Source: Candidatus Kaiserbacteria bacterium (GTDB lineage: Bacteria > Patescibacteriota > Minisyncoccia > Phycocordibacterales > UBA2100). From it: DNA of 64,000 bases. This document shows positions 677 through 57,778 of this stretch, in pieces. A model generated the notes under the pieces. The model saw only the letters and a program-made list of their open reading frames with translations. It had not been told where the DNA came from and did not search any database. Position numbers and translations under genes: made by a program. The stretch is taken from NCBI GenBank assembly GCA_016186695.1, contig JACPLC010000001.1, positions 109,718 to 173,717 on the forward strand. The letters run 5' to 3'. Positions within the stretch are counted from its first letter, which is position 1. Every line of letters starts with the position of its first letter.

Positions 677-774
677 GGGAAATCTCGTTGTCTGACTTCA
701 CGATACCTTGACGAGAATTTTACTTTGGTATATCTTTAAGCACTTGCTTAATCATTAAATCATCTAGGCTGGCT

Positions 775-1101
775 ATGCTCACGAAAGAGGAGGTACGGGG
801 TGTTCGCGCAAAGATCCCCCAAGGGGGCGATCGCCTTGCGCTCATTCTGGAAGCACTCGGCGATCCCGGACGCCTTCGGATATTCAGACTTCTCATGGAG
901 CGGCACGATCTGTGCGTGAGCGACGTTTCGTCTGTCCTCGGCGGCACGGTCTCTGCTGCTTCCCAGCAGCTCCGTGTCTTGGAGCGGGTCGGGCTGGTAC
1001 GTCGCGACCGTATGGGACAGATGATTTGCTATGAGCTACGCGACGATGATCCATGCGTTCGTTCCATTGCGTCGTTTGTGGGGAACTATTACGAGCATTA
1101 A
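775..1101 (+). CDS. ArsR/SmtB family HTH transcriptional regulator
   Basis: About 108 aa. ArsR-type winged-helix pattern (LRIFRLL...CVSDVS...SQQLRVLERVGLV). Confidence 0.75.
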   Translation: MLTKEEVRGVRAKIPQGGDRLALILEALGDPGRLRIFRLLMERHDLCVSDVSSVLGGTVSAASQQLRVLERVGLVRRDRMGQMICYELRDDDPCVRSIASFVGNYYEH

Positions 1102-1118
1102 CAGAAATCTATAAATGT

Positions 1119-1358
1119 ATGAAAAATGTAACCATTTACACAACTCCGACGTGCGTCTATTGCAAGCGAACCAAGGCGTTCTTCGGAGAGCACAACGTTG
1201 CCTATACGGAGAAAAATGTCGCATCGGATTCGGCGGCGCGCGAGGAAATGATCAAGAAATCGGAGCAGATGGGCGTGCCGGTCATCGATATCGACGGCAC
1301 GATCGTCGTCGGTTTCGACCAGCCGAAACTCGCTGAGCTTCTCGACATCAAAGCATAA
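1119..1358 (+). CDS. Glutaredoxin-like protein (NrdH/YruB type)
   Basis: CVYC active-site motif early in the sequence (TIYTTPTCVYCKRTKAFF), about 79 aa, thioredoxin fold. Lies immediately upstream of trxB. Confidence 0.75.
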   Translation: MKNVTIYTTPTCVYCKRTKAFFGEHNVAYTEKNVASDSAAREEMIKKSEQMGVPVIDIDGTIVVGFDQPKLAELLDIKA

Positions 1359-1361
1359 GGT

Positions 1362-2336
1362 ATGGACGAGCTCCACGACCTCGTCATCATCGGATCGGGC
1401 GCCGCAGGACTCGCGGCAGGAATTTATGCCGGTCGCTATGGAATGAAGGTGCTCGTACTTGGAGGGGAATTCGGCGGCGAGACGGCGAAAGCCGGGAACA
1501 TTGAAAACTATCCCGGCTTCGCATCGGTCGACGGGTATGAGCTCATGGACGCGATGAAGAAACAGTCTGAAGCGCTCGGCATTCGCCTGGTAGACGCAAA
1601 AGTTACGGCGATCTCTCGCGAGGGCCATTGTTTTACCCTCGAGGCAAACGGAAAAACGTACAACGCGAACGCGGTTCTTTTTGCCATTGGTGCAGAGCGC
1701 AGGCGCTTGGGGCTTCCGAATGAAAAAGAACTTACGGGCAAAGGCGTTCACTACTGCGTTACCTGCGATGGGCCAGTGTACGGAGGAAAAACGATTGCGA
1801 TGGTGGGCGGGGGCGACGCGTCCGTGAAAGGCGTGAATCTCGCGGCCGAATACGTGCAGAAGATTTTTCTCATTGTGAGAGGAAAAGAAGTCATCGCCGA
1901 GCCGATCAACTTTGAGCGCATGAAGAAGCTAGGAGATAAAGTCGAAGTACTCCTCGAGACTTCCGTGAAAGAGATCGTCGGCACACAGAAACTCGAGAAA
2001 CTCATTCTTTCTAAGCCATACAAGGGCTCAAGCGAACTCGTCGTCGACGGCCTCTTCGTAGAGATCGGTGCCTCGCCGCAGGTTGAGCTCGCAAAATCTC
2101 TTGGCGTTGAGCTCGACGAATCCGGCTATGTCAAAACCGACAATCTCATGCGGACCAACGTCGATGGCGTATTTGCGGCGGGCGATGTCACGAATCATTT
2201 CGGCCGTTTCAAGCAGGACATCACGGCGGCGGCGCAGGGCGCGGTTGCGGCCACCTCGGCCTACGAGGACCATAAAGTCCACGGGGATCTGTGCGTGCTT
2301 CACGCGCGGCCCGTTGGCACTTCTTTACATGTATGA
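1362..2336 (+). CDS. trxB: Thioredoxin-disulfide reductase
   Basis: N-terminal FAD-binding GSGAAG motif. Redox-active CVTCDG. NAD(P)-binding GGGDAS. Short non-canonical C-terminal tail. Confidence 0.88.
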   Translation: MDELHDLVIIGSGAAGLAAGIYAGRYGMKVLVLGGEFGGETAKAGNIENYPGFASVDGYELMDAMKKQSEALGIRLVDAKVTAISREGHCFTLEANGKTYNANAVLFAIGAERRRLGLPNEKELTGKGVHYCVTCDGPVYGGKTIAMVGGGDASVKGVNLAAEYVQKIFLIVRGKEVIAEPINFERMKKLGDKVEVLLETSVKEIVGTQKLEKLILSKPYKGSSELVVDGLFVEIGASPQVELAKSLGVELDESGYVKTDNLMRTNVDGVFAAGDVTNHFGRFKQDITAAAQGAVAATSAYEDHKVHGDLCVLHARPVGTSLHV

Positions 2337-3376
2337 CCATGAACAACTTTATGATTGCAGTTCTCGTAGTAATTGTCGGCCTCGCGGGTATCATTCTTTT
2401 CCAACGTTTTGCACGCGACGATTTCGATCTGCCTCGTGGTGGCGAAGCTGCGACAACAACCATCACTGTGGAAGAAGCGGCGGGAGGCGGGTCGCAAACC
2501 ACACGAACCATTATGGTCACCAACAACGTCAAGCATAGCGTTCCGCTCGATGAGATCCTCGGTGGCGGTCCCGCGAAGGATGGCATCCCGCCGATCGATG
2601 ATCCGCAGTTCGTTTCGATCGCGGAGGCAAGTTCGTTCCTTAAAGATTCGGAGCCGGGAATCGCGCTCGAGCGCAAGGGCGTCGCGCGTTTTTATCCATT
2701 TCAAATTCTTGTGTGGCACGAGATCGTGAACGACACAGTGGGTGGACAGCGCGTTTTGGTAACGTACTGTCCGCTGTGCTTCACGGGCATCGTCTTTGAT
2801 CCTCTCGTGAATGGCGAGCGCGTCGAGTTTGGTACCTCGGGAAAGCTGTGGAACTCGAACCTCGTGATGTACGACCGGAAAACGGATTCTTTGTGGTCGC
2901 AGGTTTTGGGCGAGGCGATCGTCGGCGAACAAACCGGAGCGCGTCTCGCCGTCATTCCCTCCGACATCATGCGTTATGAGAATTTCAAGAACTTATATCC
3001 CAAAGGCGAGGTGCTTTCGCGAAAAACGGGCGCTACTCGTCCCTACGGCACTGACCCATATGGCGACTACTACACGACTCCCGGTACCTTCTTTCCCCTC
3101 AACAAAACGGACAATCGTTTGGGCGACAAGGAATTCGTGCTCGGCATAGTCGTCAATGGCAAAGCGAAGGCGTACGCCGAGGCGGCAGTGAAGCGCGCAG
3201 GGGAGATCGAAGATCGTTTCGAAGGAAAAACGATTGTCGCGCGCTTTGATTCTGGAAGCGGCGCCGTACGTCTCTTCGAGAAAAAGGATGATGGAACACT
3301 CGTGCGCATCGAAACCATCGGCGGATTTTGGTTCTCCTGGGCTTCAGCGCATCCGGATACCGCGCTCTTTAAGTAG
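2333..3376 (+). CDS. DUF3179 family protein
   Basis: N-terminal TM helix. Conserved VTYCPLC motif characteristic of DUF3179. Start overlaps the trxB stop by ATGA. Confidence 0.6.
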   Translation: MTMNNFMIAVLVVIVGLAGIILFQRFARDDFDLPRGGEAATTTITVEEAAGGGSQTTRTIMVTNNVKHSVPLDEILGGGPAKDGIPPIDDPQFVSIAEASSFLKDSEPGIALERKGVARFYPFQILVWHEIVNDTVGGQRVLVTYCPLCFTGIVFDPLVNGERVEFGTSGKLWNSNLVMYDRKTDSLWSQVLGEAIVGEQTGARLAVIPSDIMRYENFKNLYPKGEVLSRKTGATRPYGTDPYGDYYTTPGTFFPLNKTDNRLGDKEFVLGIVVNGKAKAYAEAAVKRAGEIEDRFEGKTIVARFDSGSGAVRLFEKKDDGTLVRIETIGGFWFSWASAHPDTALFK

Positions 3377-3389
3377 CGGTCGAACATTA
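3375..3389 (+). promoter_or_regulatory. Conserved 15-nt motif AGCGGTCGAACATTA, copy 1, upstream of a small gene
   Basis: Identical 15-mer recurs at 3791..3805. Both copies sit 24 to 27 nt upstream of an ATG embedded in CAGTATG. Confidence 0.4.
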
Positions 3390-3416
3390 TTAACCTAGTT
3401 CATGTATACAAACAGT

Positions 3417-3788
3417 ATGATGTCACAAATGAAGCAGATGATGGTGCCGCTTCTTGTTCTCGCGGTCTTAGTCATCGCATCGATTTCGTTCGCATCGAAT
3501 GGTATTGGTTTGCAGGGACAAGTCGAGGGGGAGGAGGCGAAGTTCCACGCGCTCCAGAACGAGTACTTCTCGCAAAGTAAACAGGTACGCGACTCGGCGG
3601 AGAGCGGCTCTGCGCTCAACCAGCAGTTGGCGCAAATTCAGAACTATCCATCCGAGCTTCTGCGCTTGAAACTTGTCGGCGTAGGAAAGATCCTGACGGG
3701 GATCTATCTTGCGCTTCTCGCAATCGCGTTCCTTCTCTTCATGATGCCGATCCGTCTCGGAAAGTTGCTTCGGGAGGCGAGAACCTAA
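3417..3788 (+). CDS. Hypothetical small membrane/secreted protein (alternative start at 3402)
   Basis: N-terminal hydrophobic segment, Q-rich middle, second C-terminal TM helix. No recognisable domain. Confidence 0.45.
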   Translation: MMSQMKQMMVPLLVLAVLVIASISFASNGIGLQGQVEGEEAKFHALQNEYFSQSKQVRDSAESGSALNQQLAQIQNYPSELLRLKLVGVGKILTGIYLALLAIAFLLFMMPIRLGKLLREART

Positions 3789-3790
3789 AA

Positions 3791-3805
3791 AGCGGTCGAA
3801 CATTA
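3791..3805 (+). promoter_or_regulatory. Conserved 15-nt motif AGCGGTCGAACATTA, copy 2
   Basis: Exact repeat of 3375..3389, placed upstream of the Cys-rich mini-ORF. Confidence 0.4.
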
Positions 3806-3827
3806 CTAGAGATCATTTTTCATCAGT

Positions 3828-3914
3828 ATGGAAAAAGATAAAAAGACCTGCCCCGCGTGCGGTCACGATCACAAGCCGGACGGCACGTGCGATTGCGGAT
3901 GCGGGAAGGAGTAA
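3828..3914 (+). CDS. Cys-rich 28-aa peptide (MEKDKKTCPACGHDHKPDGTCDCGCGKE)
   Basis: Clean ATG to TAA ORF, too short to appear in the ORF track. Seven Cys residues plus His. Followed directly by a perfect 16-bp hairpin. Sits at the head of the thiol-disulfide oxidoreductase cluster. Confidence 0.4.
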   Translation: MEKDKKTCPACGHDHKPDGTCDCGCGKE

Positions 3915-3915
3915 T

Positions 3916-3957
3916 GCAGCGGGCCTGAATTACCCACGCGGAATTCAGGCCCGCTGC
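3916..3957 (+). terminator. Perfect 16-bp inverted repeat hairpin (GCAGCGGGCCTGAATT / AATTCAGGCCCGCTGC)
   Basis: Seen directly in sequence. GC-rich stem with a 10-nt loop and no downstream U-tract, so either a Rho-independent-like terminator or a regulatory/processing structure. Confidence 0.4.
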
Positions 3958-3986
3958 GCACAATTAGAAGTAACGCGTGGCAGAGT

Positions 3987-4541
3987 ATGCGATACACATT
4001 TATTCTCATCGCGGCGGTCATCATCATCGCAGGGGGCGTGTACCTCCTCGGCGGGAGCGGATCTCAACAGCCGGTGTCTTTAGGAGAGAACAGCGCAGCC
4101 AGTCCCGAAAATGCGGCCGCTTCTGGCGAGCGTCTGCCTGCTCTCACGCTTAAAGACTACGAAGGCAACGACGTGAATCTCACGGGTTTTTCCGGCAAAG
4201 CGCTGATCGTCAATTCATGGGCCGCATGGTGCCCGTTCTGCAGGCAGGAGCTGCCGGATTTTGCAGCTCTCCAGAAGGAGTTCCCCGACCTTGCAGTCAT
4301 CGCAGTTGATCGGGCGGAATCGCTCGCGACAGCGAAGCGCTACTCCGACGAGCTTAGTGTTACGGGAAAGCTCGTGCTTCTCCTCGATCCTTCCGACAGT
4401 TTCTACAAGGCAATTGGCGGCTTCACGATGCCGGAGACGATCTTTGTCGACAAAGAGGGTGCGATCGTCTTTCACAAGCGCGGGCCGATGAGTCTTTCGG
4501 AAATGCGGGAGAAAGTCCTCGAACTTACGCTTGCCGAGTAA
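3987..4541 (+). CDS. TlpA/ResA-like thiol-disulfide oxidoreductase (thioredoxin fold, membrane anchored)
   Basis: N-terminal TM helix. WAAWCPFC active-site motif. Confidence 0.85.
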   Translation: MRYTFILIAAVIIIAGGVYLLGGSGSQQPVSLGENSAASPENAAASGERLPALTLKDYEGNDVNLTGFSGKALIVNSWAAWCPFCRQELPDFAALQKEFPDLAVIAVDRAESLATAKRYSDELSVTGKLVLLLDPSDSFYKAIGGFTMPETIFVDKEGAIVFHKRGPMSLSEMREKVLELTLAE

Positions 4542-4547
4542 TAGCCT

Positions 4548-4709
4548 ATGGTCACAAAAACAAAACACACGCCATCTCTCTATCAGTGCGACGAATGCAA
4601 GCTCTTCTACCGCAAGGAGGAGACGGCGAAGCGCTGTGAGGCGTGGTGCACGGAACACAAGAGCTGCAATCTCGACATTATCAAAGACGCCGTTGATACA
4701 CATTCATGA
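4548..4709 (+). CDS. Small zinc-ribbon-like protein, 53 aa (CxxC ... CxxxC)
   Basis: Complete ATG to TGA ORF MVTKTKHTPSLYQCDECKLFYRKEETAKRCEAWCTEHKSCNLDIIKDAVDTHS. Its stop overlaps the dsbA-like start by ATGA. Missing from the ORF track because of size. Confidence 0.45.
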   Translation: MVTKTKHTPSLYQCDECKLFYRKEETAKRCEAWCTEHKSCNLDIIKDAVDTHS

Positions 4710-5362
4710 AAAGCGGAACTGCTATTTCTCTCTCGATTGTCGGAGCGGGTACACTAATTGCTCTCGCGGTTATTGCAAGCGCAGGCTCTGGAGCCACAGG
4801 ATCTCCTCATGCCGGAAATTCGGCACCGGTCGAGGTGCCGCTGTCTCCCGATGATCCCGTTTTGGGAAACGCCGATGCTCCCGTCACGATTATTGCGTTT
4901 GAAGACTTTGAGTGTCCATTCTGCGCGCGGTTCACGGCGGAAGCTGAGCAGTTGCTCATTCAGAATGAAATTAAGGAGGGTCTCGCGCGGATCGTGTGGA
5001 AAGACTTTCCGCTCTCCATACACTCACGCGCACGACTCGCCCACGAGGCGGCGCGATGCGCACAGGAACAGGGCAAGTTTTGGGAGTACCACGATCTTCT
5101 CTTCGGTAACCAGGATCGCCTCGGAAAAGCAGATCTTAAAGCGTACGCGAAAGCACTCGGCCTCGACGCGACAGCATTCGATTCGTGCCTCGATTCGGGG
5201 AAGTACCGCGCACTCGTGCAGAAGGGGATCAATGAAGGAACGCGTGCTGGAGTCTCGGGGACACCATCCTTCGTGATAAACGGTACACTCGTCTCGGGAG
5301 CGCTTCCCTACGAAGCGTTCAGCGATGTAATCCGGCAGATCGCCGCAGGCGCGACAAACTAG
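4706..5362 (+). CDS. DsbA-family thiol:disulfide interchange protein
   Basis: N-terminal TM/signal segment. CPFC active site within a thioredoxin fold. FEDFECPFCARF context. Confidence 0.85.
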   Translation: MKSGTAISLSIVGAGTLIALAVIASAGSGATGSPHAGNSAPVEVPLSPDDPVLGNADAPVTIIAFEDFECPFCARFTAEAEQLLIQNEIKEGLARIVWKDFPLSIHSRARLAHEAARCAQEQGKFWEYHDLLFGNQDRLGKADLKAYAKALGLDATAFDSCLDSGKYRALVQKGINEGTRAGVSGTPSFVINGTLVSGALPYEAFSDVIRQIAAGATN

Positions 5363-5365
5363 CGT

Positions 5366-6124
5366 ATGGAATTCTCGCTCATCATACCGACCTTTATTGC
5401 AGGCGTGCTCACGTTCCTCGCACCCTGCACGCTCCCACTCCTTCCGGGCTACCTCGGCTTCATCAGTGGAACGTCGATCGATGATCTCAAAGATCCCGCG
5501 CGATCGGCGAGGGCGCGGTGGAGGATATTTCTCAACGGATTATTTTTCGTCATCGGGTTCAGCGCGGTCTTTATCGTTCTCGGCACGATCGTCGGATTTG
5601 TAGGCGCAACGGTCCTTGCTCCATACCGGCAGTGGCTCTCACGTATCGGTGGAGTTTTCGTCATTATCTTCGGACTTTTTATGCTCAACGTGATAAAGGT
5701 CCCGTTCCTTACGCGCGAAACGCACTTCAAGGCGCCCGCGCTCTTTGAGCGCGGGCGCCCCCTCAACTCCCTTATCCTCGGCGCTTCGTTCTCACTCGGC
5801 TGGACGCCCTGCGTAGGCCCGATCTTGGGCTCGGTCCTTCTCCTCGCGTCTACCTCGACGACGGCCTTGCAGGGCGGACTTCTCCTCACCGTGTTCTCGC
5901 TCGGGCTCGCGGTTCCGTTCCTCCTTACCGCTGCGGCCGTTGGTCATGCTTCACGCTACATCGAAAACCTCTCGCGATTTCTCAACGTCGTATCGGTGAT
6001 CGGCGGCATATTTCTCATCGGACTCGGGTTCCTGCTCCTTACCGGAAACGTCGGTCTCCTCATCTCGTATGGGTATCGTCTTCTCGAATTCGTCAACTAC
6101 GATCGTCTGCTCGACTACCTCTAA
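5366..6124 (+). CDS. ccdA: Cytochrome c biogenesis / disulfide reductant transporter CcdA (DsbD core family)
   Basis: Multi-TM protein with conserved Cys in TM helices (LAPCTLPLLPGYL and GWTPCVGPILG). Confidence 0.85.
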   Translation: MEFSLIIPTFIAGVLTFLAPCTLPLLPGYLGFISGTSIDDLKDPARSARARWRIFLNGLFFVIGFSAVFIVLGTIVGFVGATVLAPYRQWLSRIGGVFVIIFGLFMLNVIKVPFLTRETHFKAPALFERGRPLNSLILGASFSLGWTPCVGPILGSVLLLASTSTTALQGGLLLTVFSLGLAVPFLLTAAAVGHASRYIENLSRFLNVVSVIGGIFLIGLGFLLLTGNVGLLISYGYRLLEFVNYDRLLDYL

Positions 6125-6127: not shown

Positions 6128-6499
6128 ATGAAAACGCCGGCCAAAGACATTTTTAAGATCGCATCGGTACCCATCGTTATGGCGTCGCTCTGCTGCCTCT
6201 CGCCCGTAATCCTTGTACTTCTGGGGTTGAGCACGGCGTCATTCGCCGCATCTCTTGCAGACGTTCTATACGGACAGTATGCGTGGGCTTTTCGTGCGGT
6301 GGGGCTCCTGCTGCTTGCCGCATCGCTCGTTGTCTATTTCCGCAATAAAGGTATTTGCACCATCGACGAAGCAAAGAAATGCCGCAACGAGATCATCAAT
6401 ACGACCATCGTCGTTTTCATCGCCGCGGTCATCGGCTATGTCGTGTTTCTCTATGTCATTGTCGAGTACGCGGGTAAGTTTCTCGCCATCTGGCAGTGA
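6128..6499 (+). CDS. Small membrane protein with a CC pair in TM1 and a cytoplasmic CxxxxxxxC pair (MerT-like architecture)
   Basis: Three TM helices. SLCCLSPV in TM1 and CTIDEAKKC in a loop. Assignment rests on motifs only. Confidence 0.4.
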   Translation: MKTPAKDIFKIASVPIVMASLCCLSPVILVLLGLSTASFAASLADVLYGQYAWAFRAVGLLLLAASLVVYFRNKGICTIDEAKKCRNEIINTTIVVFIAAVIGYVVFLYVIVEYAGKFLAIWQ

Positions 6500-6533
6500 G
6501 GTCGTTATTCGCAGCAGTAACCTATATAGATCT

Positions 6534-6812
6534 ATGAAAGCAATCTGGAACGGAGTGACGATAGCTGAAAGTAGCGCGACGCGCGTTGTTGAGGGCAATC
6601 ATTATTTCCCGCCGGAATCGGTGTATCGCGAGTATCTCAAAAAGAACGGCAAGACGTACGTATGTTCATGGAAAGGTATTGCAGACTACTATGATGTCGT
6701 CGCGGGCGAAAAGGCTGCGCCGGGCGCTGCGTGGACGTACCCAGAGCCAAAAGAGGCGGCGCAGGAGATCGCGGGATACTTCGTGTTCTGGAAAGGAGTC
6801 GAGGTCGTATGA
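6534..6812 (+). CDS. DUF427 domain protein
   Basis: About 92 aa with the NHYFP motif and a Trp-rich C-terminus typical of DUF427. The ORF-track start at 6255 is unlikely to be real. Confidence 0.6.
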   Translation: MKAIWNGVTIAESSATRVVEGNHYFPPESVYREYLKKNGKTYVCSWKGIADYYDVVAGEKAAPGAAWTYPEPKEAAQEIAGYFVFWKGVEVV

Positions 6813-8652: not shown

Positions 8653-9840
8653 CTAGCCCTCGACGACTTTTATTTTTGAGGCGGCGCGTTTCCCTTTTGC
8701 ACGGGCTTCGGAGACGGTCTCCGCAGTTGCGAGGACGACGGCCATGCGGCGGTGTTTGATGACCTCGGGTTTCCCGAAGATGCGGACCCATGTGCCCGAT
8801 TCTTTGAGCGCTTTCTCTACTCCTTCATACGTGGGATTTTTCATGTCGCCTTCGGCAAGAATTGCGACCGAGGCGCCGGGGTGGCAGGGAATTTCCGGAA
8901 TCGGGAGGCCGAGAATTGCACGCACGTGTAGCTCCATCTCACTCATGCTCTGTGAGACCATGGTGACCATGCCGGTGTCGTGCGGCCGCGGCGAGATTTC
9001 CGAAAAGTAGACGTCGTCGCCTTTGATAAAAAGCTCGCATCCGAAGATGCCGCGACCACTCTCGCCGCACAGGTCGTCCACAATTTTCTTTCCTATGGCA
9101 TGAGCTTTCTTTAGCTGTGTTTCGTTCATCTCGTGCGGCTGCCATGATTCCCGATAATCTCCGGCGATTTGGATATGCCCGACAGGCGCGCAAAACGATA
9201 TCCCCGCGGCGTGTCGCACGGTGAGAAGCGTGATCTCGGAGTCAAATTTGATCTGTCCTTCGACGATGACCTTGCCGGTTTTTCCGCGGCCCGACTCCAT
9301 CGCAAAGTTCCATGCGTTTTCCAGTTCACTTTCTTTCTCCACCTTGCTCTGTCCGTGTCCTGAAGAAGACATCGTTGGCTTCACGAAGCAGGGGAAGCCG
9401 ACGTCGGCCGCACCCTTTTTGAGCTCTTCAAGTGATGAAGCGAAGTGGTACGGCGACGTCGGGAGTTTCAACTCTTCTGCGGCAAGGCGGCGGATACCTT
9501 CGCGATCCATCGTGAGACGTGTCGCCCTCGCGGTGGGGATCACGGTCCAACCTTCTTTCTCGAGCTCCACCAGAGTCGGCGTCGCGATTGCTTCGATCTC
9601 GGGGACAATGTATGTCGGCTTTTCTTTTTCCACGATTTCGCGGATCTTTGTGCCGTCGAGCATCGGAAAAACATACGAGCGGTGCGCGATCTGTTGCGCG
9701 GGAGCGCCTTCGTACCGATCGCACGCGACGACCTCGCAGCCGAGCCGCATCGCTTCAATCGCGACTTCTTTGCCGAGTTCGCCGCTTCCGAGGAGGAGGA
9801 TTTTTATCGCGGAGGGCTTCAGCGGAGTACCAAATCTCAT
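8653..9840 (-). CDS. purT: Formate-dependent phosphoribosylglycinamide formyltransferase 2
   Basis: ATP-grasp fold. N-terminal [12 protein letters not shown]. Full length 395 aa with good PurT-like conservation. Confidence 0.85.
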
Positions 9841-27151: not shown

Positions 27152-27223
<72 letters not shown>

Positions 27224-27263
27224 TCTGTGCACTGTACTACAAAGAAAAGTCGGTAGCAATTTT

Positions 27264-27452
27264 TTAGTGGCCGAGTGCGGTGAGCACGACTTCCGTGAGC
27301 GAAACGGCAACGAATGTTGCAAGCGCGAGGAGGAACAATCTCCAATCGAGCGACGTAATGATCGAACCGAAACCGTAGGCGAGAAATCCAAGTGCGACAA
27401 ACCACAGCACGGAATTAAATGCGAGGATCGTTGTCCAGAAGCGTGTGGACAT
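27264..27452 (-). CDS. Hypothetical small membrane protein (62 aa)
   Basis: Two hydrophobic helices. No similarity recognised. Could be spurious. Confidence 0.25.
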   Translation of the reverse strand: MSTRFWTTILAFNSVLWFVALGFLAYGFGSIITSLDWRLFLLALATFVAVSLTEVVLTALGH

Positions 27453-27515
27453 ACTGCAACATGATTATATCGCATTGTTGAGAGGGAAGGAGTAAACTGA
27501 TATCTTGTCAGAATT

Positions 27516-27589
27516 GTCGGGGTAGCTCAGCTGGTTAGAGCGGACGTTTCATAAGCGTCAGGTCGTGGGATCGTAGCCCACCCCCGACA
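27516..27589 (+). tRNA. tRNA-Met (anticodon CAT), elongator-like
   Basis: Cloverleaf with acceptor GTCGGGG/CCCCGAC, D-arm GCTC...GAGC, anticodon stem GACGT/GCGTC and loop TTCATAA. T-loop ATCGTAG carries an A54:U58 swap, a covariation of the usual T54:A58. Confidence 0.7.
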
Positions 27590-27680
27590 CACAGCGGACA
27601 CACAGCGTGGCGGTTGCGGAAGGCATATGTATCCACGTAAGTGGTTAGTGCCATGTCTTGTCACGTGGTAGTATAGTTTT

Positions 27681-28442
27681 GTGGCTCCAATGTATCGTAA
27701 AGTAAGACGTGATTTTTTCCGCATCTGGTCCGCGGAAATGGCATACGTTCTTGGTTTCTTTGCAGCCGATGGCAATATGATCCGGAACAGGCGAGGCGCG
27801 TATTTCGTCAGCTTTTACTCGAATGACAGGCGGTTGCTCGTCGATATCCGACATGTACTCGACTCCTCACACAGGATTGGAACGAAGAAACATTTTCCTT
27901 CGCGTAGGACCGCATACCAACTTCAAATCGGGAGCAAAGAAATCTTTGAGGATTTGTTGTCATTGGGATTTACTCCAAATAAGAGTACATCACTTCGGCT
28001 GCCGCGTATTCCGAGGTCGCTCGCGAAGCATTTCGTGCGAGGCTACTTTGATGGAGACGGCAATGTGTATTTCAAAAGGCACTTCGCGAAGGATCGGGGT
28101 AAATACCGGTGGATATTTCAAAGCAGGTTTACATCGGGCAGTCGTGTGTTTCTGGAAGATCTCCATACCGTTCTTCGGAGCAACGGAATTCTTGGCGGAT
28201 CGCTCATCAAGAAAGAGCGCGGCCACGATTTGCTATTTAGTCATCATGATAGCGTTGCTTTATTCCGTCTTATGTACAATAATATCGGCGATTGCGTATA
28301 TCTTAGGAGAAAGTACTTGCTATTCCGACACGCAGTCGACTCATTGTATGGGGGCGTAGCTCAGCCCGGTTCAGAGCGTCCGCTTGTCACGCGGAAGGTC
28401 GCGGGTTCAAATCCCGTCGCTCCCGCATCACCGAAAAACTGA
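27681..28442 (+). CDS. Double-motif LAGLIDADG homing endonuclease, free-standing; functional protein probably ends near 28349
   Basis: Two LAGLIDADG motifs, LGFFAADGN and VRGYFDGDGNV, about 100 aa apart. Lower GC (about 47%) than the flanks. From 28350 the frame reads through tRNA-Asp, so the last 30 codons probably translate the tRNA. Confidence 0.75.
   Translation: MAPMYRKVRRDFFRIWSAEMAYVLGFFAADGNMIRNRRGAYFVSFYSNDRRLLVDIRHVLDSSHRIGTKKHFPSRRTAYQLQIGSKEIFEDLLSLGFTPNKSTSLRLPRIPRSLAKHFVRGYFDGDGNVYFKRHFAKDRGKYRWIFQSRFTSGSRVFLEDLHTVLRSNGILGGSLIKKERGHDLLFSHHDSVALFRLMYNNIGDCVYLRRKYLLFRHAVDSLYGGVAQPGSERPLVTRKVAGSNPVAPASPKN
28350..28425 (+). tRNA. tRNA-Asp (anticodon GTC)
   Basis: Acceptor GGGGGCG/CGCTCCC (one G:U pair). 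D-arm GCTC...GAGC. Anticodon stem TCCGC/GCGGA with loop TTGTCAC. T-arm GCGGG TTCAAAT CCCGT. Confidence 0.8.
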
Positions 28443-28663
28443 CAGCCGGCCGCGCCGACATTTTCGCATGACTGAAGCCTAAATTTTAGGCGGCGAGCCG
28501 ATAATCACTGCGCTGCCTTGACCATATAAAACACTAAATGTAAAGTAAGGTGGGTATAGCGGAGTGCGCGAGATGACCTCGCGGTCAGTCCGCAGTGCTT
28601 ATCTCAAATTTGATGCGATAAGCATCGCTTCTGATCGTGAAGGCAGATATGGGAGAGTGACCT

Positions 28664-28864
28664 ATGATGATGTCGACTGAATTATTGGAACGGCTCGTTC
28701 CATGGTCTGATGACAGCTTCCTTGTCTTCGACGTAAAGTCCATCTTGCAGCACTGCTTCGACAAGGGAGCCCTCTCACCTAGAAAGGTCGAGGGCATGCT
28801 CGCGACACTCCCTGCCTCGGAGCAAATTCGCAGGCGCAACAGCGCCGGTGAATCGCTCCACTAG
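28664..28864 (+). CDS. Hypothetical small protein (66 aa)
   Basis: ORF only. Preceded by a hairpin-rich 220-nt intergenic region. Confidence 0.3.
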   Translation: MMMSTELLERLVPWSDDSFLVFDVKSILQHCFDKGALSPRKVEGMLATLPASEQIRRRNSAGESLH

Positions 28865-28950
28865 CAATGGACCGGAAAGTTCTGGTCCACGCGACGAGCC
28901 GTCAGAGGATACTGGCGGCTCGCTCTTATGCTTTCGTGCAGGAGCGGTGA

Positions 28951-28956
28951 TAGAAT
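28951..28956 (+). promoter_or_regulatory. TAGAAT -10-like hexamer 6 nt upstream of the HD-domain gene ATG
   Basis: Sequence gtgaTAGAATcagcggATG. Confidence 0.3.
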
Positions 28957-28962
28957 CAGCGG

Positions 28963-29616
28963 ATGAAGACTGCGCAGGATATTTACGCTGAATACAACAT
29001 CATGCCCTCGCTGCAGCTCCATCAGCTGCGGGTAGCGGCGGCCGCGAAGTTAATTTGCGACAATTTGAAAGTCCCGGTCAATACGGGCGATGTCGTTCTT
29101 GCGTGCCTTTTTCACGACATGGGCAACATTTTGAAATTTGATCTTGGGAAAACGTTTCCTGAATTTCTCGAACCAGAAGGGGCAGAGTATTGGAGGCAAG
29201 CGAAGGCGGAATTCTTATATCGATATGGCGACAACGCGCACAAGGCGAACATCGCGATTGGGAGAGAGATCGGATTAGACAAGAGGATCGTCGAGCTGAT
29301 CGATAGCATAAGTTTTTCGAATATTGCAAACATTGTTGCAAATGCTTCGTTCGAGCAAAAAATCAGTGAGTATGCCGACGATAGGGTAGGTCCGTACGGG
29401 GTCTTGCCACTGAAAGAACGTCTTGCAGAGGCTCGCGCACGCTATATCGAGAGCGGAAAAACGTACTATACGGCTGAAGGATTCGACAAACTTTCGCGCT
29501 TGGTATATGAACTTGAGCGACAAATCTTTGCGCACACGAGTGTCCGACCCGAAGATCTCAACGACGCAGCCGTCGAGTCTATCATTGAGCAATTGAGAAC
29601 CTACACGGTAGCGTGA
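28963..29616 (+). CDS. HD-domain phosphohydrolase family protein
   Basis: H...HD motif (LACLFHDMGN) and downstream metal-ligand residues. Confidence 0.7.
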   Translation: MKTAQDIYAEYNIMPSLQLHQLRVAAAAKLICDNLKVPVNTGDVVLACLFHDMGNILKFDLGKTFPEFLEPEGAEYWRQAKAEFLYRYGDNAHKANIAIGREIGLDKRIVELIDSISFSNIANIVANASFEQKISEYADDRVGPYGVLPLKERLAEARARYIESGKTYYTAEGFDKLSRLVYELERQIFAHTSVRPEDLNDAAVESIIEQLRTYTVA

Positions 29617-29631
29617 TAGTATCGCAATGTC

Positions 29632-29704
29632 GCCGATGTAGCTCAGTTGGTAGAGCAACTCCATGGTAAGGAGTAGGTCGCCGGTTCAACTCCGGCCATC
29701 GGCT
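29632..29704 (+). tRNA. tRNA-Thr (anticodon GGT)
   Basis: Acceptor GCCGATG/CATCGGC. Anticodon stem ACTCC/GGAGT with loop ATGGTAA. T-arm GCCGG TTCAACT CCGGC. Confidence 0.85.
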
Positions 29705-29755
29705 CACGAGATGAGTACTGGAAATTCGTTAAAAATCCCGTAGGATAAGCTCGTT

Positions 29756-29873
29756 TGCCGCCTTAGCTCCCTCCTACGCTCAAATTGCATTTGAGCTTCG
29801 GACGGGCAAGCAGTAGGACTTTCCACTACGACTTGCACTTCGAAGCTCCGATGTAAAATCGGAGCGTAGTAGT
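29756..29873 (+). repeat. 14-nt direct repeat of the tRNA-Thr(CGT) 5' end (TGCCGCCTTAGCTC) flanking a 103-nt palindrome-rich spacer
   Basis: First copy at 29756..29769, second copy at 29873..29886 (the start of the real tRNA). The spacer contains the hairpin GCTCAAAT-tgc-ATTTGAGC and ends that pair with each other (TCCTACGCTC with GAGCGTAGTA). Confidence 0.5.
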
Positions 29874-29945
29874 GCCGCCTTAGCTCAGTGGTAGAGCAAC
29901 GCTTTCGTAAAGCGTGGGTCCCCGGTTCAAATCCGGGAGGCGGCT
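29874..29945 (+). tRNA. tRNA-Thr (anticodon CGT)
   Basis: Acceptor GCCGCCT/AGGCGGC. Anticodon stem ACGCT/AGCGT with loop TTCGTAA. T-arm CCCGG TTCAAAT CCGGG. Confidence 0.85.
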
Positions 29946-33394: not shown

Positions 33395-33548
33395 AACCCC
33401 GCTGCTTCGGGGTTATGCGCTCCGCTCGAAAGAGCGGTCTTCCTTCTTTTATCCCGACTGTACGGTCGGTCGCGGGATCTCACCGCAGTCGTGTCCCGAC
33501 TTTTGTCAGGACTCGTGGACTCGCCCCTCGAGAGGAGCTCTACCACCG
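33395..33548 (-). ncRNA. FMN riboswitch (RFN element) with intrinsic terminator, upstream of ribE
   Basis: Minus-strand sequence ...AGGGGCGAGTCCACGAGTCCTGACAAAAGTCGGGAC...GATCCCGCGACCGACCGTACAGTCGGGATAAAAGAAGGAAG matches conserved RFN blocks (for example CCGACAGTGAAAGTCTGGATGGGAGAAGGA). Followed by hairpins CCGCTCTTTCGAGCGG and CCCCGAAGCAGCGGGG plus a T-tract that abuts the ribE ATG. Confidence 0.8.
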
Positions 33549-33725
33549 ATTGGGACTTTCCGCCAATCTGGCGGATCACCCAAACCCCGAAGGAAATGTA
33601 AGTATACCGCTCGCTTCAACGAAAGCCAACCGTTATACTTTCGAAATGCAGAGCAAAGAAACGATAGCGGCTATGGTGCTTCTTTTTGCGATGTATAAGG
33701 TAGCTAAACTCAATCGCGAGAAAAG

Positions 33726-40420: not shown

Positions 40421-41362
40421 ATGAACAGGGTCGTGCTTGGTGCAGCAGCCGTCATCGCGGCCGCATGGCTTTTGATACTTCCGGTTTCGGACACCAGAGA
40501 TTTCGTTCGTCCTGTGCCGGTGATGCCGACTCCCACACCGGAGCCGCGAGCTTCTATTATATTCGGCGGCGATCTGATGTTCGACCGCTCGATCCGAACC
40601 GCCATGGAACAGCACGGAGAAGATTATATTTTTTCCTGCATTGAGGGTGTACTGCAAAGCGCGGATCTCGTGGTAGCAAACCTCGAGGGGCCGATCACCA
40701 CGCACCCGTCAAAAAGTATCGGTACGAAGGTCGGCGGGGAAGGGAATTATACTTTTACATTCCCGATCTCGGCCGCTGCACTACTCTTCCGCCATAACGT
40801 TCGATTGGTAAACATCGGCAACAACCACGTCATGAATTTCGGCCGCGAGGGCCTTGCGCAGACCAAATACTGGCTTGATGAAGCAGGGGTCCTCTATTTC
40901 GGTGAGCCGGATCTTAGCGAGACGGATCGCGTTGAAAGGATCTCGGTGAATGGAATTCCTTTCTCGTTCGTGAACTGGAGCGACTGGACCTCGGATAAGA
41001 CAGATCACACGGTCGCACAGGTACGCGAAGAGGCGGAGAAGGGAAACATCGTCGTCGTGTTTGCACACTGGGGAGACGAATACGTGCCGGCGCCGGAACG
41101 CGTCAAGGTTCTTGCGCGGCAATTCGTCGACGCGGGAGCGGATATTGTCATTGGTGCGCATCCGCACGTTGTACAGGAGCACGAAATCTATCAGGAGAAG
41201 CACATCTACTACTCGCTCGGCAATTTTGTTTTTGATCAGTACTGGAGTGAAGCCGTGCGACGGGGACTTCTGCTTCGCGTCGAATTTACTCGAGAAAGCG
41301 TCGCTTCAGTGGAAGAAATTCCCATTGATAATCAGACTGATCGTCGGACGTGTGCGGGATGA
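40421..41362 (+). CDS. capA: CapA family protein (PGA_cap metallophosphatase-like, poly-gamma-glutamate/capsule-associated)
   Basis: N-terminal TM helix. Calcineurin-like metallophosphatase motifs (GGDLMFDR, GNNH, GAHPH). Confidence 0.75.
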   Translation: MNRVVLGAAAVIAAAWLLILPVSDTRDFVRPVPVMPTPTPEPRASIIFGGDLMFDRSIRTAMEQHGEDYIFSCIEGVLQSADLVVANLEGPITTHPSKSIGTKVGGEGNYTFTFPISAAALLFRHNVRLVNIGNNHVMNFGREGLAQTKYWLDEAGVLYFGEPDLSETDRVERISVNGIPFSFVNWSDWTSDKTDHTVAQVREEAEKGNIVVVFAHWGDEYVPAPERVKVLARQFVDAGADIVIGAHPHVVQEHEIYQEKHIYYSLGNFVFDQYWSEAVRRGLLLRVEFTRESVASVEEIPIDNQTDRRTCAG

Positions 41363-42358: not shown

Positions 42359-42429
42359 TGCGGGATCATCTAATGGTAGGATGCGACTCTCTGGAAGTCG
42401 TCATCTTGGTTCGAATCCAAGTCCCGCAG
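42359..42429 (+). tRNA. tRNA-Gln (anticodon CTG)
   Basis: Acceptor TGCGGGA/TCCCGCA. D-arm ATCT...GGAT. Anticodon stem CGACT/AGTCG with loop CTCTGGA. T-arm CTTGG TTCGAAT CCAAG. Confidence 0.75.
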
Positions 42430-50054: not shown

Positions 50055-50726
50055 ATGAAAATACTTCTTATAGAGGACGAACAGAAACTGGCCACTGCTC
50101 TGAAGCGGGGCTTAGAACTGCAGGGCTATGCGGTGGATATTGTCGCGGACGGAAAGAAAGCACTCACGAGAATATCGCTCCATCGCACCGACTATGATCT
50201 CGTGATACTTGATCTCATGTTGCCTTCGATGGACGGGCACGAAATATGCAAGCGTATGTGCGAAGAGAACATCACTGTGCCAGTCCTCGTGCTTACCGCT
50301 CGTGCCGAAACCGACAACAAGGTGAAACTGCTTTTGTCGGGCGCTGACGACTACCTTGTGAAGCCGTTTTCGTTTGCGGAACTCTCAGCGCGGCTGCAGG
50401 CGCTCTTACGGCGCCCGAGCGAGAGCGTACCCGAAGTGTTGCACAGCGATGACCTCGAGCTAAATCCCGTCACGAGGCGGGTAACGCGCGCGGGAGAAGA
50501 CATTCCGCTGACTCTCAAAGAGTTCGGACTCCTCGAGTACTTCATGCGCAATCCCGATAAGGTCGTGAGTCGGGAAGACCTGCTTAGTCACCTGTGGGAT
50601 TTCAACTATGTCGGATTCAGCAACGTCGTGGACGTCCACGTTAAAAACCTTCGCAGAAAACTTGGGGGAGGAGATACAGGCCTACTGGAAACGGTTCGGG
50701 GCATCGGCTACCGGCTACGTGCATAA
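50055..50726 (+). CDS. OmpR-family two-component response regulator
   Basis: Receiver (LLIEDE...DLVILDLMLP) plus winged-helix trans_reg_C domain. Confidence 0.88.
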   Translation: MKILLIEDEQKLATALKRGLELQGYAVDIVADGKKALTRISLHRTDYDLVILDLMLPSMDGHEICKRMCEENITVPVLVLTARAETDNKVKLLLSGADDYLVKPFSFAELSARLQALLRRPSESVPEVLHSDDLELNPVTRRVTRAGEDIPLTLKEFGLLEYFMRNPDKVVSREDLLSHLWDFNYVGFSNVVDVHVKNLRRKLGGGDTGLLETVRGIGYRLRA

Positions 50727-51804
50727 GTATCGGTTCGATCCGTTCTTCCGTACAGAAGTAAGTGTCGTCGCACTGCAGATCGTGTTTGCAGTTCTACTTC
50801 TCCTCATAGTCGGTCTTGCGGCAACCTCGCTCTACCATGATGCTTCTGCCGCACTTTCGCGCGGTATAGAGCAGGTACTAACGTCGCCATCCAACCCCGA
50901 GGCAGTGGGCCACTCTGTCGCGGAGGAACTCTCGACGATGCGGATGAGGACCGTTACGTGGGCGGCGATTGCCGTCGTGGCCGTAACTGTCTTTCTAAGC
51001 TATCTCATTGCACGTGTCGCGCTTAGCCCTACACGAAACGCGCTTGAATCCCAAAAACAATTCATTGGGAACGTCGCGCATGAGCTTCGCACGCCGCTTT
51101 CGGTCATCAAGACCAACACCGAAGTCGCCCTCATGTCGGGAGGGATTGAGCGAGAACTTCGTTCGACCTTGGAGAGCACGGTCGGAGAACTCGATCGCAT
51201 ATCTGAGATTATCAACAATCTACTCTCGCTCTCCGCTTCTGTACGGCCTGAGCGCATGGAATTTAAAGATCTTGATTTCGGTCCCATCGTGCATGGCGTC
51301 ATCGGGAAGTTGAAAGAGCTCGCTGATTCAAAGCGTGTCGAGATAACGGCACGAATGAGTCAGCGCAGGTTCGTACTCGGCAACCCCGCAGCCCTTGAGC
51401 AGATTACGATGAATATACTCAAGAACGCTATCACGTACTCACCTCGTGGCGGGCGGGTCATCGTCACGGTAGAACCGATACACCCGGATTATATAGAGTT
51501 TACCGTGCAGGATTTTGGCATCGGCATCGCGCAGAAGAACCTGTTCCGGATCTTTGAGCCATATTATCGAGTAGATCCTTCGCGCTATCGCGGCGAGTCG
51601 GGTTCGGGTCTAGGATTAACGATTGTCTCCGAACTCGTCAAGCTCCATAACGGCAAGATCACTGTGCGAAGTGCCGAGCAGCGTGGCACCATTGTGACCG
51701 TTCATCTTCCCGCCGGTCGGCCGAGTCTCACATCGGAGCGAGCTGCAGCTCACGATGAGCACGCGGGCGAAGTAACCGTCGATTTTTCGCATCGCGCGGG
51801 CTGA
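50719..51804 (+). CDS. Sensor histidine kinase (two TM helices, HisKA, HATPase_c); start uncertain (GTG at 50719 or further upstream)
   Basis: H-box NVAHELRTPL. N, G1 and G2 boxes (GSGLGL). Overlaps the response-regulator stop. Confidence 0.8.
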   Translation: MHKYRFDPFFRTEVSVVALQIVFAVLLLLIVGLAATSLYHDASAALSRGIEQVLTSPSNPEAVGHSVAEELSTMRMRTVTWAAIAVVAVTVFLSYLIARVALSPTRNALESQKQFIGNVAHELRTPLSVIKTNTEVALMSGGIERELRSTLESTVGELDRISEIINNLLSLSASVRPERMEFKDLDFGPIVHGVIGKLKELADSKRVEITARMSQRRFVLGNPAALEQITMNILKNAITYSPRGGRVIVTVEPIHPDYIEFTVQDFGIGIAQKNLFRIFEPYYRVDPSRYRGESGSGLGLTIVSELVKLHNGKITVRSAEQRGTIVTVHLPAGRPSLTSERAAAHDEHAGEVTVDFSHRAG

Positions 51805-53140: not shown

Positions 53141-53662
53141 ATGAAGGACATCGAGAAAATATTTCAGCAGGCGTTTGAAAAGCATGCGGACGAACTCTTC
53201 CGACACGCCTCTTTGAGGCTCTCGGATCGCGATCGCGCGCTCGAACTCACGCAGGAATGTTTTCTACGCACTTTGGCTTATGCCTCGCGCGGCGAGGAGA
53301 TCCGCGAGATACGCCCGTTCCTCTTCAGAACATTGAGGCATCTCATCATCGATGAGTATCGCAGGGCAAAATCATTCTCGCTCGACGAGATGACAGAAGG
53401 CGAGGATGGGGAGCAGATGGACTCGCTTCTCAAGGATGAAACCGACGAGCTCGAGCAGGCGTTTGCGCGCTTCGACGGAGCACGTGCGCTCGGTATGATC
53501 AGGCGGCTGCCGGATCTGTACCGCGAAGTCTTGATGATGCGCTACGTTGATGACCTCTCGATATCTGAAATTGCCGCGTGCATCGAGGAGAGCGAAAATG
53601 TGGTCTCGGTGCGGCTGCATCGCGGTTTAAAGAAGTTGCGCGCCTTGCTTGAATCTGAATAA
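53141..53662 (+). CDS. ECF-subfamily RNA polymerase sigma-70 factor
   Basis: Sigma70 region 2 (FLRTLAY...LIIDEYRR) and region 4 (LSISEIAACIEESENVVSVRLHRGLKKLR). Confidence 0.85.
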   Translation: MKDIEKIFQQAFEKHADELFRHASLRLSDRDRALELTQECFLRTLAYASRGEEIREIRPFLFRTLRHLIIDEYRRAKSFSLDEMTEGEDGEQMDSLLKDETDELEQAFARFDGARALGMIRRLPDLYREVLMMRYVDDLSISEIAACIEESENVVSVRLHRGLKKLRALLESE

Positions 53663-57744: not shown

Positions 57745-57772
57745 TTGACTAGATACCCCCTAGGGGTATCAT
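57745..57772 (+). promoter_or_regulatory. Promoter with CsoR-type operator: TTGACT, then the 19-bp perfect palindrome GATACCCCCTAGGGGTATC, then TATCAT -10; the csoR ATG follows 6 nt later
   Basis: Palindrome at 57752..57770 overlaps the -35/-10 spacer and the -10 element. GC-rich pseudo-palindromes of the form TACCC...GGGTA are the known CsoR operator type. Confidence 0.65.
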
Positions 57773-57778
57773 GGCTAC

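Follow-up and report, generated by a model that had tools for sequence, protein, structure and literature searches.

Two copies of a 15-nt sequence, AGCGGTCGAACATTA, lie within an array of thiol and metal genes in a 64,000-nt stretch of a Candidatus Kaiserbacteria genome (contig JACPLC010000001.1, positions 109,718 to 173,717; this whole stretch is called the window, and positions are counted from its first letter). Comparison with related loci shows the 15-mer to be a longer version, in this lineage, of a cis-element that is conserved and strictly oriented: a box A, GGTCGA(A), is followed at variable distance by an A/T-rich box B, ATTAYYAAC. The first copy precedes the gene of a two-transmembrane (2-TM) protein, here called Memb123, and the second precedes that of a 28-aa peptide rich in Cys and His. 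Our favoured interpretation, which is tentative and stands somewhat below even probability, is that the element belongs to the promoter class of DNA signals, serves a thiol/metal-stress regulon and is recognised by a factor other than the housekeeping one.

The repeated 15-mer in the window

The features of the central region, with their open reading frames (ORFs), are as follows:

3375-3395 (+), element copy 1: the 15-mer AGCGGTCGAACATTA, with box A (GGTCGA) at 3378-3383 and box B (ATTATTAAC(C)) at 3386-3395
3417-3788 (+), Memb123, a conserved 2-TM helical-hairpin membrane protein without a Pfam family
3791-3805 (+), element copy 2: the identical 15-mer, beginning 2 nt past the TAA of Memb123
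3828-3914 (+), 28-codon ORF encoding the Cys5His2 peptide MEKDKKTCPACGHDHKPDGTCDCGCGKE, a single unit of a modular Cys/His-rich small-protein family
3916-3931 and 3942-3957 (+), arms of a perfect 16-bp hairpin with a 10-nt loop, beginning 2 nt past the stop codon of the 28-codon ORF

The preliminary description of this DNA had reported the exact 15-mer twice, 416 nt apart, with one of the two following ATGs starting a membrane protein; both statements were borne out, the copies lying at 3375-3389 and 3791-3805 on the plus strand and the ORF at 3417-3788 being present. The same description placed the copies 24 to 27 nt before an ATG within CAGTATG. That context was found at both copies, the real gaps being 27 nt (copy 1) and 22 nt (copy 2); it is only partly specific, since T at -1 ('TATG') is widespread among starts here, in 35 of the 74 window genes. 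The copies had further been put at the head of the cluster, which did not hold: the array begins at an ArsR gene (775) and runs via glutaredoxin (Grx), thioredoxin reductase (TrxR) and DUF3179, and both copies are internal. Copy 1 overlaps the stop codon of the DUF3179 gene (TAG, 3374-3376).

A chance origin of the repetition was rejected on the basis of window shuffles, which gave 0.18 matches to the 15-mer at two or fewer mismatches, and of the chance expectation for a second exact copy (1e-4). A further copy, the third, differs at one position (chance expectation 0.0055) and is located at 40575-40589 on the minus strand, inside the PGA_cap ORF at 40421-41362 (+). Being antisense to the PGA_cap gene, it implies a plus-strand mRNA that is complementary to the element at 14 of 15 positions; the plus strand there encodes DLMFDRS, and this copy was treated as a coding coincidence and rejected as a regulatory site.

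Conservation, orientation and associated genes

The comparison set consisted of 141 related loci plus four close relatives, all sampled around Memb123, in which genes were called as crude ORFs. Because every comparison locus was sampled around one gene, the functional coherence described below is partly built in and thus inflated; only the 64-kb window was sampled without such bias. Usually with A's before it, the core GGTCGA(A) recurs in Parcubacterial loci at the position equivalent to that in the window. Within 75 nt upstream of Memb123 the motif was present in 40 of 103 non-redundant orthologues (3.8 expected), and GGTCGA or a variant with one mismatch was present in 26 of the 47 spacers between Memb123 and a Cys/His-rich ORF. 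The block GGTCGAACATTAYYAA is kept before Memb123 in L066 and L067, the closest relatives (82-87% protein identity), and the remaining spacer has diverged.

In 502 distinct co-directional spacers, the motif occurred 52 times in forward and 5 times in reverse orientation, and its density there was 2.1 per kb, compared with a background of 0.395 per kb. It was found mainly in spacers of 30-49 nt, being present in 31 and absent in 106 of 137 such spacers. The genes that follow it encode the membrane protein (22 non-redundant cases), Cys-rich peptides (17) or DoxX (10), and in single cases Grx, TrxR, TlpA, a rhodanese, a DsrE-like protein, DUF2703, a 53-aa zinc-finger-like protein or a fusion of G6PD and 6-phosphogluconate dehydrogenase (G6PD-6PGD). 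Enrichment before redox genes had been named as a check on the preliminary description, along with further copies, and the scans of the window and of relatives gave a core that is enriched, oriented and placed before thiol/metal genes. Three further copies or variants were found in the window:

6500-6505 (+), variant element GGTCGT, directly past a stop codon and 34 nt before the DUF427 gene
58398 (+), element copy GGTCGAT in a CCGG/CCGG stem, within the CsoR operon
58442-58699 and 58704-60728 (+), genes for DUF5676 and then an HMBD P-type ATPase, following the 58398 element
from 49785 downwards (-), element copy GGTCGAT with a CAAGA/TCTTG stem and ATTATCAAC as box B, 44 nt before the next gene
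49741-49052 (-), that gene, for a secreted peptidoglycan (PG)-binding protein

The last of these genes, which is PG-binding/Pur_ac_phosph_N-like, is divergent from a pair encoding an OmpR-family response regulator and a histidine kinase (50055-51804), and the pair could possibly place it under separate control.

In single genomes, whole element spacers of 30-45 nt were near-identical before different genes (L080, 2963 and 3371; L014, 1101 and 3590; and loci of the L123/L088 type). Such likeness suggests spacer duplication or gene conversion, or else that the spacers have co-evolved with a reader whose specificity is extended.

Anatomy of the element

When instances were aligned on GGTCGA, only GGTCGA itself had high information. 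Box B (ATTATTAAC, with two or fewer mismatches) was found in 46 of 65 instances (shuffled spacers: 19.9 ± 3.3), and its distance to the ATG was mostly 13-23 nt. The distance between the boxes was mostly 1-21 nt, clustering at 1-4, 8-9 and 13-16 nt, and was 30-35 nt in three outliers. Window copy 1 has a perfect box B (3386-3394), and copy 2 has ATTACTAGA.

From the end of box A to the ATG the distance was at least 25 nt in all but 1 of 50 cases, the exception being one in which an upstream in-frame ATG was taken, with a median of 32 nt and a mode of 29-32 nt. The element was rejected as a Shine-Dalgarno (SD) site on account of this distance and of the presence of SD-like sequence before only 3 of the 74 window genes. 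On the upstream side, the preceding ORF ended with its stop codon 0-10 nt short of box A in 26 of 50 cases, and box A lay 14-34 nt inside that ORF in 14 of 50.

In 43 of 65 instances, GGTCGA was followed at 16-18 nt by a hexamer starting with TA (at other offsets: mean 27, maximum 37). The consensus of this hexamer was TAATNA, 32 of the 43 ending in A, and T was enriched at +22 and +23 in the GGTCGA-aligned instances. TTGAC accompanied the motif in 0 of 62 spacers, compared with 28 of 285 (p = 0.004), and TAnnnT had no positional peak in motif spacers. For these reasons a sigma70 housekeeping promoter was rejected, the same genomes having clear canonical promoters elsewhere.

A stem of 4-10 bp (mostly 5-8) enclosed box A in 17 of 65 instances, compared with 3.4 ± 1.8 in shuffles (maximum 8). 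The arms are lineage-specific (GGGCAG/CTGCCC, GGTGG/CCACC, CTTCCG/CGGAAG and TTTCCG/CGGAAA, GAGTGA/TCACTT, and in the window CCGG/CCGG and CAAGA/TCTTG). In the best-sampled subclass of stems 95% of cells pair, and 8 of 12 changed cells still pair via G.U on the sense strand; double-compensatory changes were absent from this subclass. Window copies 1 and 2 have neither an enclosing stem nor a significant fold (z = -0.31 and +0.37, respectively), and Rfam gave no meaningful match in the window region or in the loci of 10 relatives.

The element as a candidate promoter

Besides the scarcity of SD-like sequence, a further trait of the window is a hexamer TAnnnT in 22 of its 74 genes, placed 5-8 nt (mostly 6) upstream of the ATG; this points to leaderless mRNAs from canonical promoters. 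Internal genes are mostly joined by overlaps or by spacers of 2-10 nt. Memb123 itself starts with TATACA-N6-ATG; leaderless or SD-less examples elsewhere are the gene at 8653-9840 (-) and those at 16785, 19115, 19736, 22669, 26430, 28963, 36465 and 44305. A canonical, regulated promoter is seen at the CsoR unit, assigned by reading of the sequence and a tblastn match, without a Pfam run:

57745-58051, CsoR unit: TTGACT at 57745-57750, a 16-nt spacer with the palindrome ATACCCCCTAGGGGTAT at 57753-57769, TATCAT at 57767-57772, then 6 nt and the ATG

The CsoR-like gene is followed by genes for a DsrE-like protein, DUF5676 and the HMBD P-type ATPase.

In the mechanism that we propose, box A would stand in for the housekeeping -35 (TTGACA), and its reader would be an alternative sigma factor or an activator that replaces the -35. 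The elements would provide internal, condition-specific (stress-responsive) starts of leaderless or short-leader transcripts, inside an array headed by a canonical ArsR-controlled promoter. Copy 1 would drive the membrane protein, and copy 2 would separately drive the 28-aa Cys5His2 peptide; the 16-bp hairpin would end or attenuate the short peptide unit, leaving the peptide in excess over TlpA, DsbA and CcdA. The peptide would most likely be a small metallothionein-like binder of metal (Zn/Cu/Cd-type) that works with the membrane partner.

A promoter is favoured by the lower limit of 25 nt and the mode of 29-32 nt, which correspond to the spacing between a -35 and the beginning of a leaderless or short-leader gene. 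Consistent with it are the TA hexamer at 16-18 nt, the exclusion of TTGAC, and the usage of leaderless TAnnnT-N6-ATG starts with almost no SD sequence. The downstream genes are functionally coherent, both the peptide family and the hairpin are kept, and an ECF-type (extracytoplasmic function) sigma factor is encoded in the window. Spacings that resemble a -35/-10 pair were found in L067 (GGTCGA-17-CATAAT-8-ATG) and in the window at 6500 (GGTCGT-17-TATATA-5-ATG) and 58398 (GGTCGA-16-TATTAT).

53141-53662, ECF-type sigma factor (Sigma70_r2 and r4_2, 173 aa), followed by a DUF5667 protein, to 54794

The DUF5667 protein is possibly an anti-sigma factor. Upstream of the sigma gene lie an extended -10 (TGGTATAGT) and AGCGGAACA, the latter resembling the 15-mer minus TCG.

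Several points weigh against a promoter. The hexamer at 16-18 nt is not a sigma70 -10, because A and not T is its last base (TAATNA), and window copies 1 and 2 have no TA hexamer at this offset. The distance from box A to the ATG differs by 5 nt between these two copies (39 and 34 nt), the spacing of box A and box B is loose with box B anchored to the ATG, and a 5-nt insertion after box A separates L048 from L049. Stems that are lineage-specific and include G.U pairs suggest a constraint at the level of RNA. The elements lie inside arrays or operons that already have regulated canonical promoters (ArsR, CsoR), and linkage of an ECF sigma factor to the module was not found in relatives. Finally, the case is drawn from the sequences of relatives sampled around a single gene, which makes the functional coherence look greater than it is.

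Among the closest parallels to the element are thiol-stress regulons with dedicated promoters. Promoters of sigmaR in Streptomyces and sigmaH in Mycobacterium have the form GGAAT/GGAAC-N17-18-GTT and precede trxB, trxC and similar genes. Like them, the present element would be a non-housekeeping -35-like box before thioredoxin, NADPH-supply and thiol genes, with internal promoters in operons; it differs in having GGTCGA as its box, no conserved -10 of the GTT type, loose spacing to the A/T box, and no sigma/anti-sigma pair linked to the module. It resembles sites of -35-replacing activators, such as the pho boxes of PhoB, in that a specific box takes the place of TTGACA (TTGAC in 0 of 62 spacers). 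Pho boxes, however, are tandem direct repeats, whereas here a single box of 6-7 nt is found with no repeat at 10-11 nt, and with no activator identified.

The signals that govern gene expression in the Candidate Phyla Radiation (CPR) are, to our knowledge, almost entirely uncharacterised. Literature searches on CPR promoters, leaderless mRNAs and DUF3179 clusters gave nothing relevant, and no description of the element was found. The locus thus adds a conserved cis-element (GGTCGA plus an A/T box) that is distinct from the leaderless sigma70 promoters of the same genomes and tied to thiol/metal-stress genes. As far as we could find, no stress regulon has yet been described in these organisms, and the element would define the first if it represents a promoter class of its own.

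Alternative explanations of the element

A somewhat unlikely alternative is that the element is intercistronic and works in RNA. One long SD-less mRNA would then run from the ArsR or CsoR promoter, and GGUCGA, single-stranded or displayed in a loop by the upstream stop codon, would act together with box B, which lies 13-23 nt ahead of the AUG; through binding of a protein, a small RNA or the ribosome itself, it would control initiation, re-initiation or processing of the next cistron. This would account for the excess of enclosing stems (17 of 65 against 3.4 ± 1.8 in shuffles) with their lineage-specific arms, and for a best-sampled subclass that is 95% paired with 8 of 12 changes kept by G.U. 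It would also suit the flexible spacing of the boxes, the anchoring of box B to the AUG and the tolerated 5-nt indel, as well as the absence of a sigma70 -35/-10 from motif spacers, the position inside operons with regulated upstream promoters, and the stop codon 0-10 nt before the motif in 26 of 50 cases. The motif and SD sequence are near-exclusive among orthologous spacers (motif in 2 of 25 with SD and 38 of 78 without, p = 3e-4), a pattern that may be purely phylogenetic.

Action in RNA does not, on the other hand, predict the fixed TA signal at 16-18 nt or the lower bound of 25 nt. Neither of the two window copies folds significantly as RNA (z = -0.31 and +0.37), Rfam gave no match, no double-compensatory changes were seen within a subclass, and no trans-factor was identified. 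Moreover, since 106 of 137 spacers of the same length are without the element, it is not a general requirement for SD-less initiation. Should the element nevertheless act in RNA, it would bear on the translation of SD-less polycistronic mRNAs.

One specific form of RNA action, which we regard as distinctly unlikely, is that GGUCGA is a ribosome-tethering or standby element for SD-less bacteria, located at the end of a cistron and handing the 30S subunit to box B and to an AUG 30-45 nt further on. It would sometimes sit in a hairpin opened by the terminating ribosome, and it would be a bacterial counterpart, for selected stress genes of Parcubacteria, of the viral termination upstream ribosomal binding site (TURBS). 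Caliciviruses use the TURBS for translational coupling and re-initiation through a tether to 18S rRNA. The likeness lies in the nearby upstream stop codon, sometimes with a hairpin whose 5' arm is in the upstream ORF, and in a downstream AUG 30-45 nt away in an organism without SD; unlike in that system, most comparable spacers here have no element. E. coli 16S rRNA carries UCGACCGC near nt 871-878, the complement of GCGGUCGA; neither the window nor any of the fetched loci contains rRNA. We know of no bacterial precedent for tethering of the TURBS kind.

That the element is the operator of the array's own ArsR/SmtB repressor (775-1101) is improbable. In its favour, the array begins with the ArsR gene both here and in L080, L055, L021 and other loci, and the regulator is of the thiol/metal type with conserved Cys residues. 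Sites of ArsR/SmtB proteins, however, are inverted repeats (12-2-12 type), whereas GGTCGA(A) is asymmetric and strictly oriented. The arsR genes have another palindrome (TTAAGCA-N2-TGCTTAA type) by canonical promoters and no GGTCGA, and many motif loci have no arsR within the fetched flanks. ArsR is an unlikely reader because its own promoters bear this different palindrome and because the element is asymmetric.

Still more improbable is a neutral remnant, in which two 15-mers without function would have been left by spacer duplication or gene conversion. The window spacers do look paralogous over their full length (shared CTAG..TCAT..CAGTATG), and L080 has two near-identical spacers of 45 nt and L014 two such blocks of 30 nt. 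The core, however, is kept across lineages whose flanks are unalignable, is about 10-fold enriched before Memb123 and is strictly oriented, and in the diverged spacers of L066 and L067 only the element survives. Conservation across lineages largely refutes this explanation.

Two other candidates were rejected outright. A CtsR box consists of tandem heptads ((A/G)GTCAAA-NAN-(A/G)GTCAAA), and the element has a single GGTCGAA with no second heptad 3 nt downstream. For an integron attC site or cassette boundary, the spacers are 30-50 nt, cores of the RYYYAAC...GTTRRRY type are absent, and the arrays contain no integrase.

The membrane protein, the Cys/His-rich peptide and the hairpin

The genes preceded by the two window copies, together with a third small gene further downstream, define three families. 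Two of these are unannotated families of small proteins, namely the modular Cys/His peptide and a zinc finger resembling DUF7128; the third is a slowly evolving 2-TM partner protein that occurs in metagenome-assembled genomes (MAGs) labelled as CPR and as DPANN archaea.

Memb123 had 396 database relatives at 60-87% identity, an alignment gave 37 invariant columns, and only 65 clusters at 50% identity were found among 1.84 billion representatives. An AlphaFold2 model gave a 2-TM helical hairpin with a predicted local distance difference test (pLDDT) score of 85; Pfam, NCBIfam, PDB sequence and Foldseek searches yielded nothing beyond a generic helical hairpin. The 2-TM protein was also seen, at 50-60% identity, in MAGs labelled as DPANN archaea (Woesearchaeota, Pacearchaeota, Micrarchaeia) and as other phyla (L020, L023, L027, L028, L030, L032, L040, L045, L050 and L053). 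In these loci an SD-like GGAGGTGA stands upstream in place of GGTCGA, and several of them also hold other module genes (DUF3179, DsbA, MerT-like, Grx, LOG). This distribution could reflect cross-domain transfer or mis-binning.

The 28-codon ORF had been described as encoding seven Cys residues. It is, on the evidence of its homologues, a real and conserved small-protein gene, and the composition is 5 Cys and 2 His. By tblastn, the window peptide is 59-64% identical to units in relatives, and a Cys/His-rich ORF follows Memb123 in 47 of the 95 loci with enough sequence. The family is modular, built from a unit B, CxxCxHxHx4-6CxCxC (for example CTMCNHEHKADGVCDCGC), and a unit A, CMACSCPCExHKEH, in varying number, and some members have His-rich tracts or CxxC...CC heads; the window gene corresponds to one unit B. 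Neither the peptide nor five longer homologues matched any Pfam or NCBIfam family, Metallothio_Pro included, and a database search with a 58-aa homologue gave no word-sharing candidates.

The peptide is probably a small cytoplasmic, metallothionein-like metal binder that works with the membrane partner, as suggested by its Cys/His composition, the ArsR, CsoR and P-type-ATPase context and the lack of a signal peptide. Among the functions proposed in the preliminary description, metal binding fits best, the Cys/His-ligand unit being repeated or joined to His-rich tracts in homologues. Bacterial metallothioneins (SmtA/BmtA, MymT) are likewise tiny Cys/His proteins with CxxC, CxC and His ligands, encoded at ArsR/SmtB loci, with ligand-rich units in variable number. 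In contrast to them, the present family has no Pfam or NCBIfam match, its unit CxxCxHxHx4-6CxCxC is distinct from the Zn4Cys9His2-type pattern, and it is obligatorily paired with a 2-TM membrane protein.

The other two proposed functions, namely precursors of ribosomally synthesised and post-translationally modified peptides (RiPPs) and dedicated thiol-redox substrates of TlpA, DsbA or CcdA, are hardly credible. The mini-ORFs are small and Cys-rich and adjoin thiol-disulfide oxidoreductases. Against such roles, there is no leader/core layout, unit number varies, and tracts rich in His typify metal ligands. TlpA and DsbA function outside the membrane, whereas a signal peptide is absent from the Cys5His2 product, whose constant partner is the 2-TM protein and not an oxidoreductase. 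No radical SAM, YcaO or LanM-type enzyme was found in the window array (by Pfam) or in the annotations of four related contigs.

The hairpin after the 28-codon ORF was confirmed as perfect over 16 bp, and it is the strongest in the window (-38.2 kcal/mol, z = -4.7). In 18 of 44 relatives the Cys/His ORF is likewise followed by a strong hairpin, unrelated in sequence and in several cases with a T-tract; these hairpins come mainly after members ending in ...CDCGCGKK, as the window peptide does. Retention of this position among relatives points to a transcript-end or attenuation signal. In the window the hairpin has no U-tract, and the TlpA gene follows after 29 nt with no recognisable promoter between, which together imply partial read-through. 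It resembles intrinsic terminators and attenuators within operons in being a strong GC-rich hairpin after a short, presumably highly expressed gene, with T-tracts in relatives; unlike them it has no U-tract in the window, hence an uncertain termination efficiency. From its sequence and position, the window hairpin may be a terminator or attenuator, or a 3' stabiliser.

The 53-aa zinc-finger-like protein

4548-4709 (+), 53-aa zinc-finger-like protein, a relative of DUF7128, with an ATGA overlap with the DsbA-like gene at 4706

This ORF, noted earlier as an unannotated Cys-rich frame between the tlpA-like and dsbA-like genes with an ATGA overlap, proved to be a conserved gene. There were 11 homologues at 57-85% identity, five of which (57-70%) carry PF23447/DUF7128; the window protein itself scored 21.9 bits against DUF7128 (PF23447), the cut-off being 25.7. 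In the alignment C14, C17, C30, C34, H37 and C40 are invariant. Structure prediction, which had been suggested as a check for a zinc ribbon, gave a confident mini-domain of three strands plus a helix (AlphaFold2, pLDDT 87.8) that is zinc-finger-like. By alignment and model, the product is a conserved zinc-finger-like protein. At locus L125 a GGTCGA element precedes this gene.

The surrounding gene array

The co-directional array in which the two copies lie is made up of the following features, in addition to those listed above (gene assignments by Pfam, and by NCBIfam where stated):

708-751 (+), putative array head, from a promoter scan and sequence reading: canonical promoter-like TTGACG-17-TATCTT and the palindrome TTAAGCACTTGCTTAA (736-751), before the ArsR gene
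775-1101 (+), ArsR/SmtB-family metalloregulator, first gene of the array (Pfam HTH_5, 8.5e-11; NCBIfam HTH_metalloreg, 71.5 bits against a cut-off of 55)
1119-1358 (+), glutaredoxin
1362-2336 (+), thioredoxin reductase-like protein
2333-3376 (+), DUF3179 protein
3987-4541 (+), TlpA/Redoxin-like membrane-anchored thiol-disulfide oxidoreductase (Redoxin, AhpC-TSA)
4706-5362 (+), DsbA-like protein (also NCBIfam)
5366-6124 (+), CcdA/DsbD_TM protein (also NCBIfam)
6128-6499 (+), CC-motif membrane protein, weakly MerT-like (also NCBIfam)
6534-6812 (+), DUF427 (NTP_transf_9) protein (7e-29)

The stretch at 708-751 is likely the head of the array, and the palindrome at 736-751 is likely the ArsR operator, as judged from the sequence. 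Orthologous ArsR genes in relatives also have TTGAC plus a -10 and repeats of the TTAAG...CTTAA type. The palindrome TTAAGCA-N2-TGCTTAA lies 3' of canonical arsR promoters in the window (736-751) and at loci L080, L055, L060 and L105, and it is distinct from the GGTCGA element.

The Grx, TrxR and DUF3179 genes are tightly packed, with a 3-nt spacer followed by an overlap, and beyond DUF427 the array continues in the same direction with genes for DoxX, a Cys-phosphatase and a LOG-like protein. The TlpA, DsbA, CcdA and CC-motif neighbours named in the preliminary description were confirmed by Pfam and NCBIfam, and its proposal of a coordinated thiol/metal module with a repeated cis-element gained support: dozens of Parcubacteria/CPR loci have the same gene set around the membrane gene, in shuffled order (ArsR, Grx, TrxR, DUF3179, TlpA, DsbA, CcdA, MerT-like, 53-aa protein, phosphatase and LOG), and the motif core is enriched before module genes.

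A G6PD/6-phosphogluconate dehydrogenase fusion of 790-796 aa was seen in the neighbourhood of the module at L014 (1101, with the element before it) and at L005 (5643-8033). The element before the fusion gene in L014 would link NADPH supply to the thiol system.

Elsewhere in the window, an FMN riboswitch at 33437-33598 (-), scoring 72.3 bits and above the gathering score, lies upstream of riboflavin-type genes, and six tRNA genes are located at 27153-29945 and 42359-42429.

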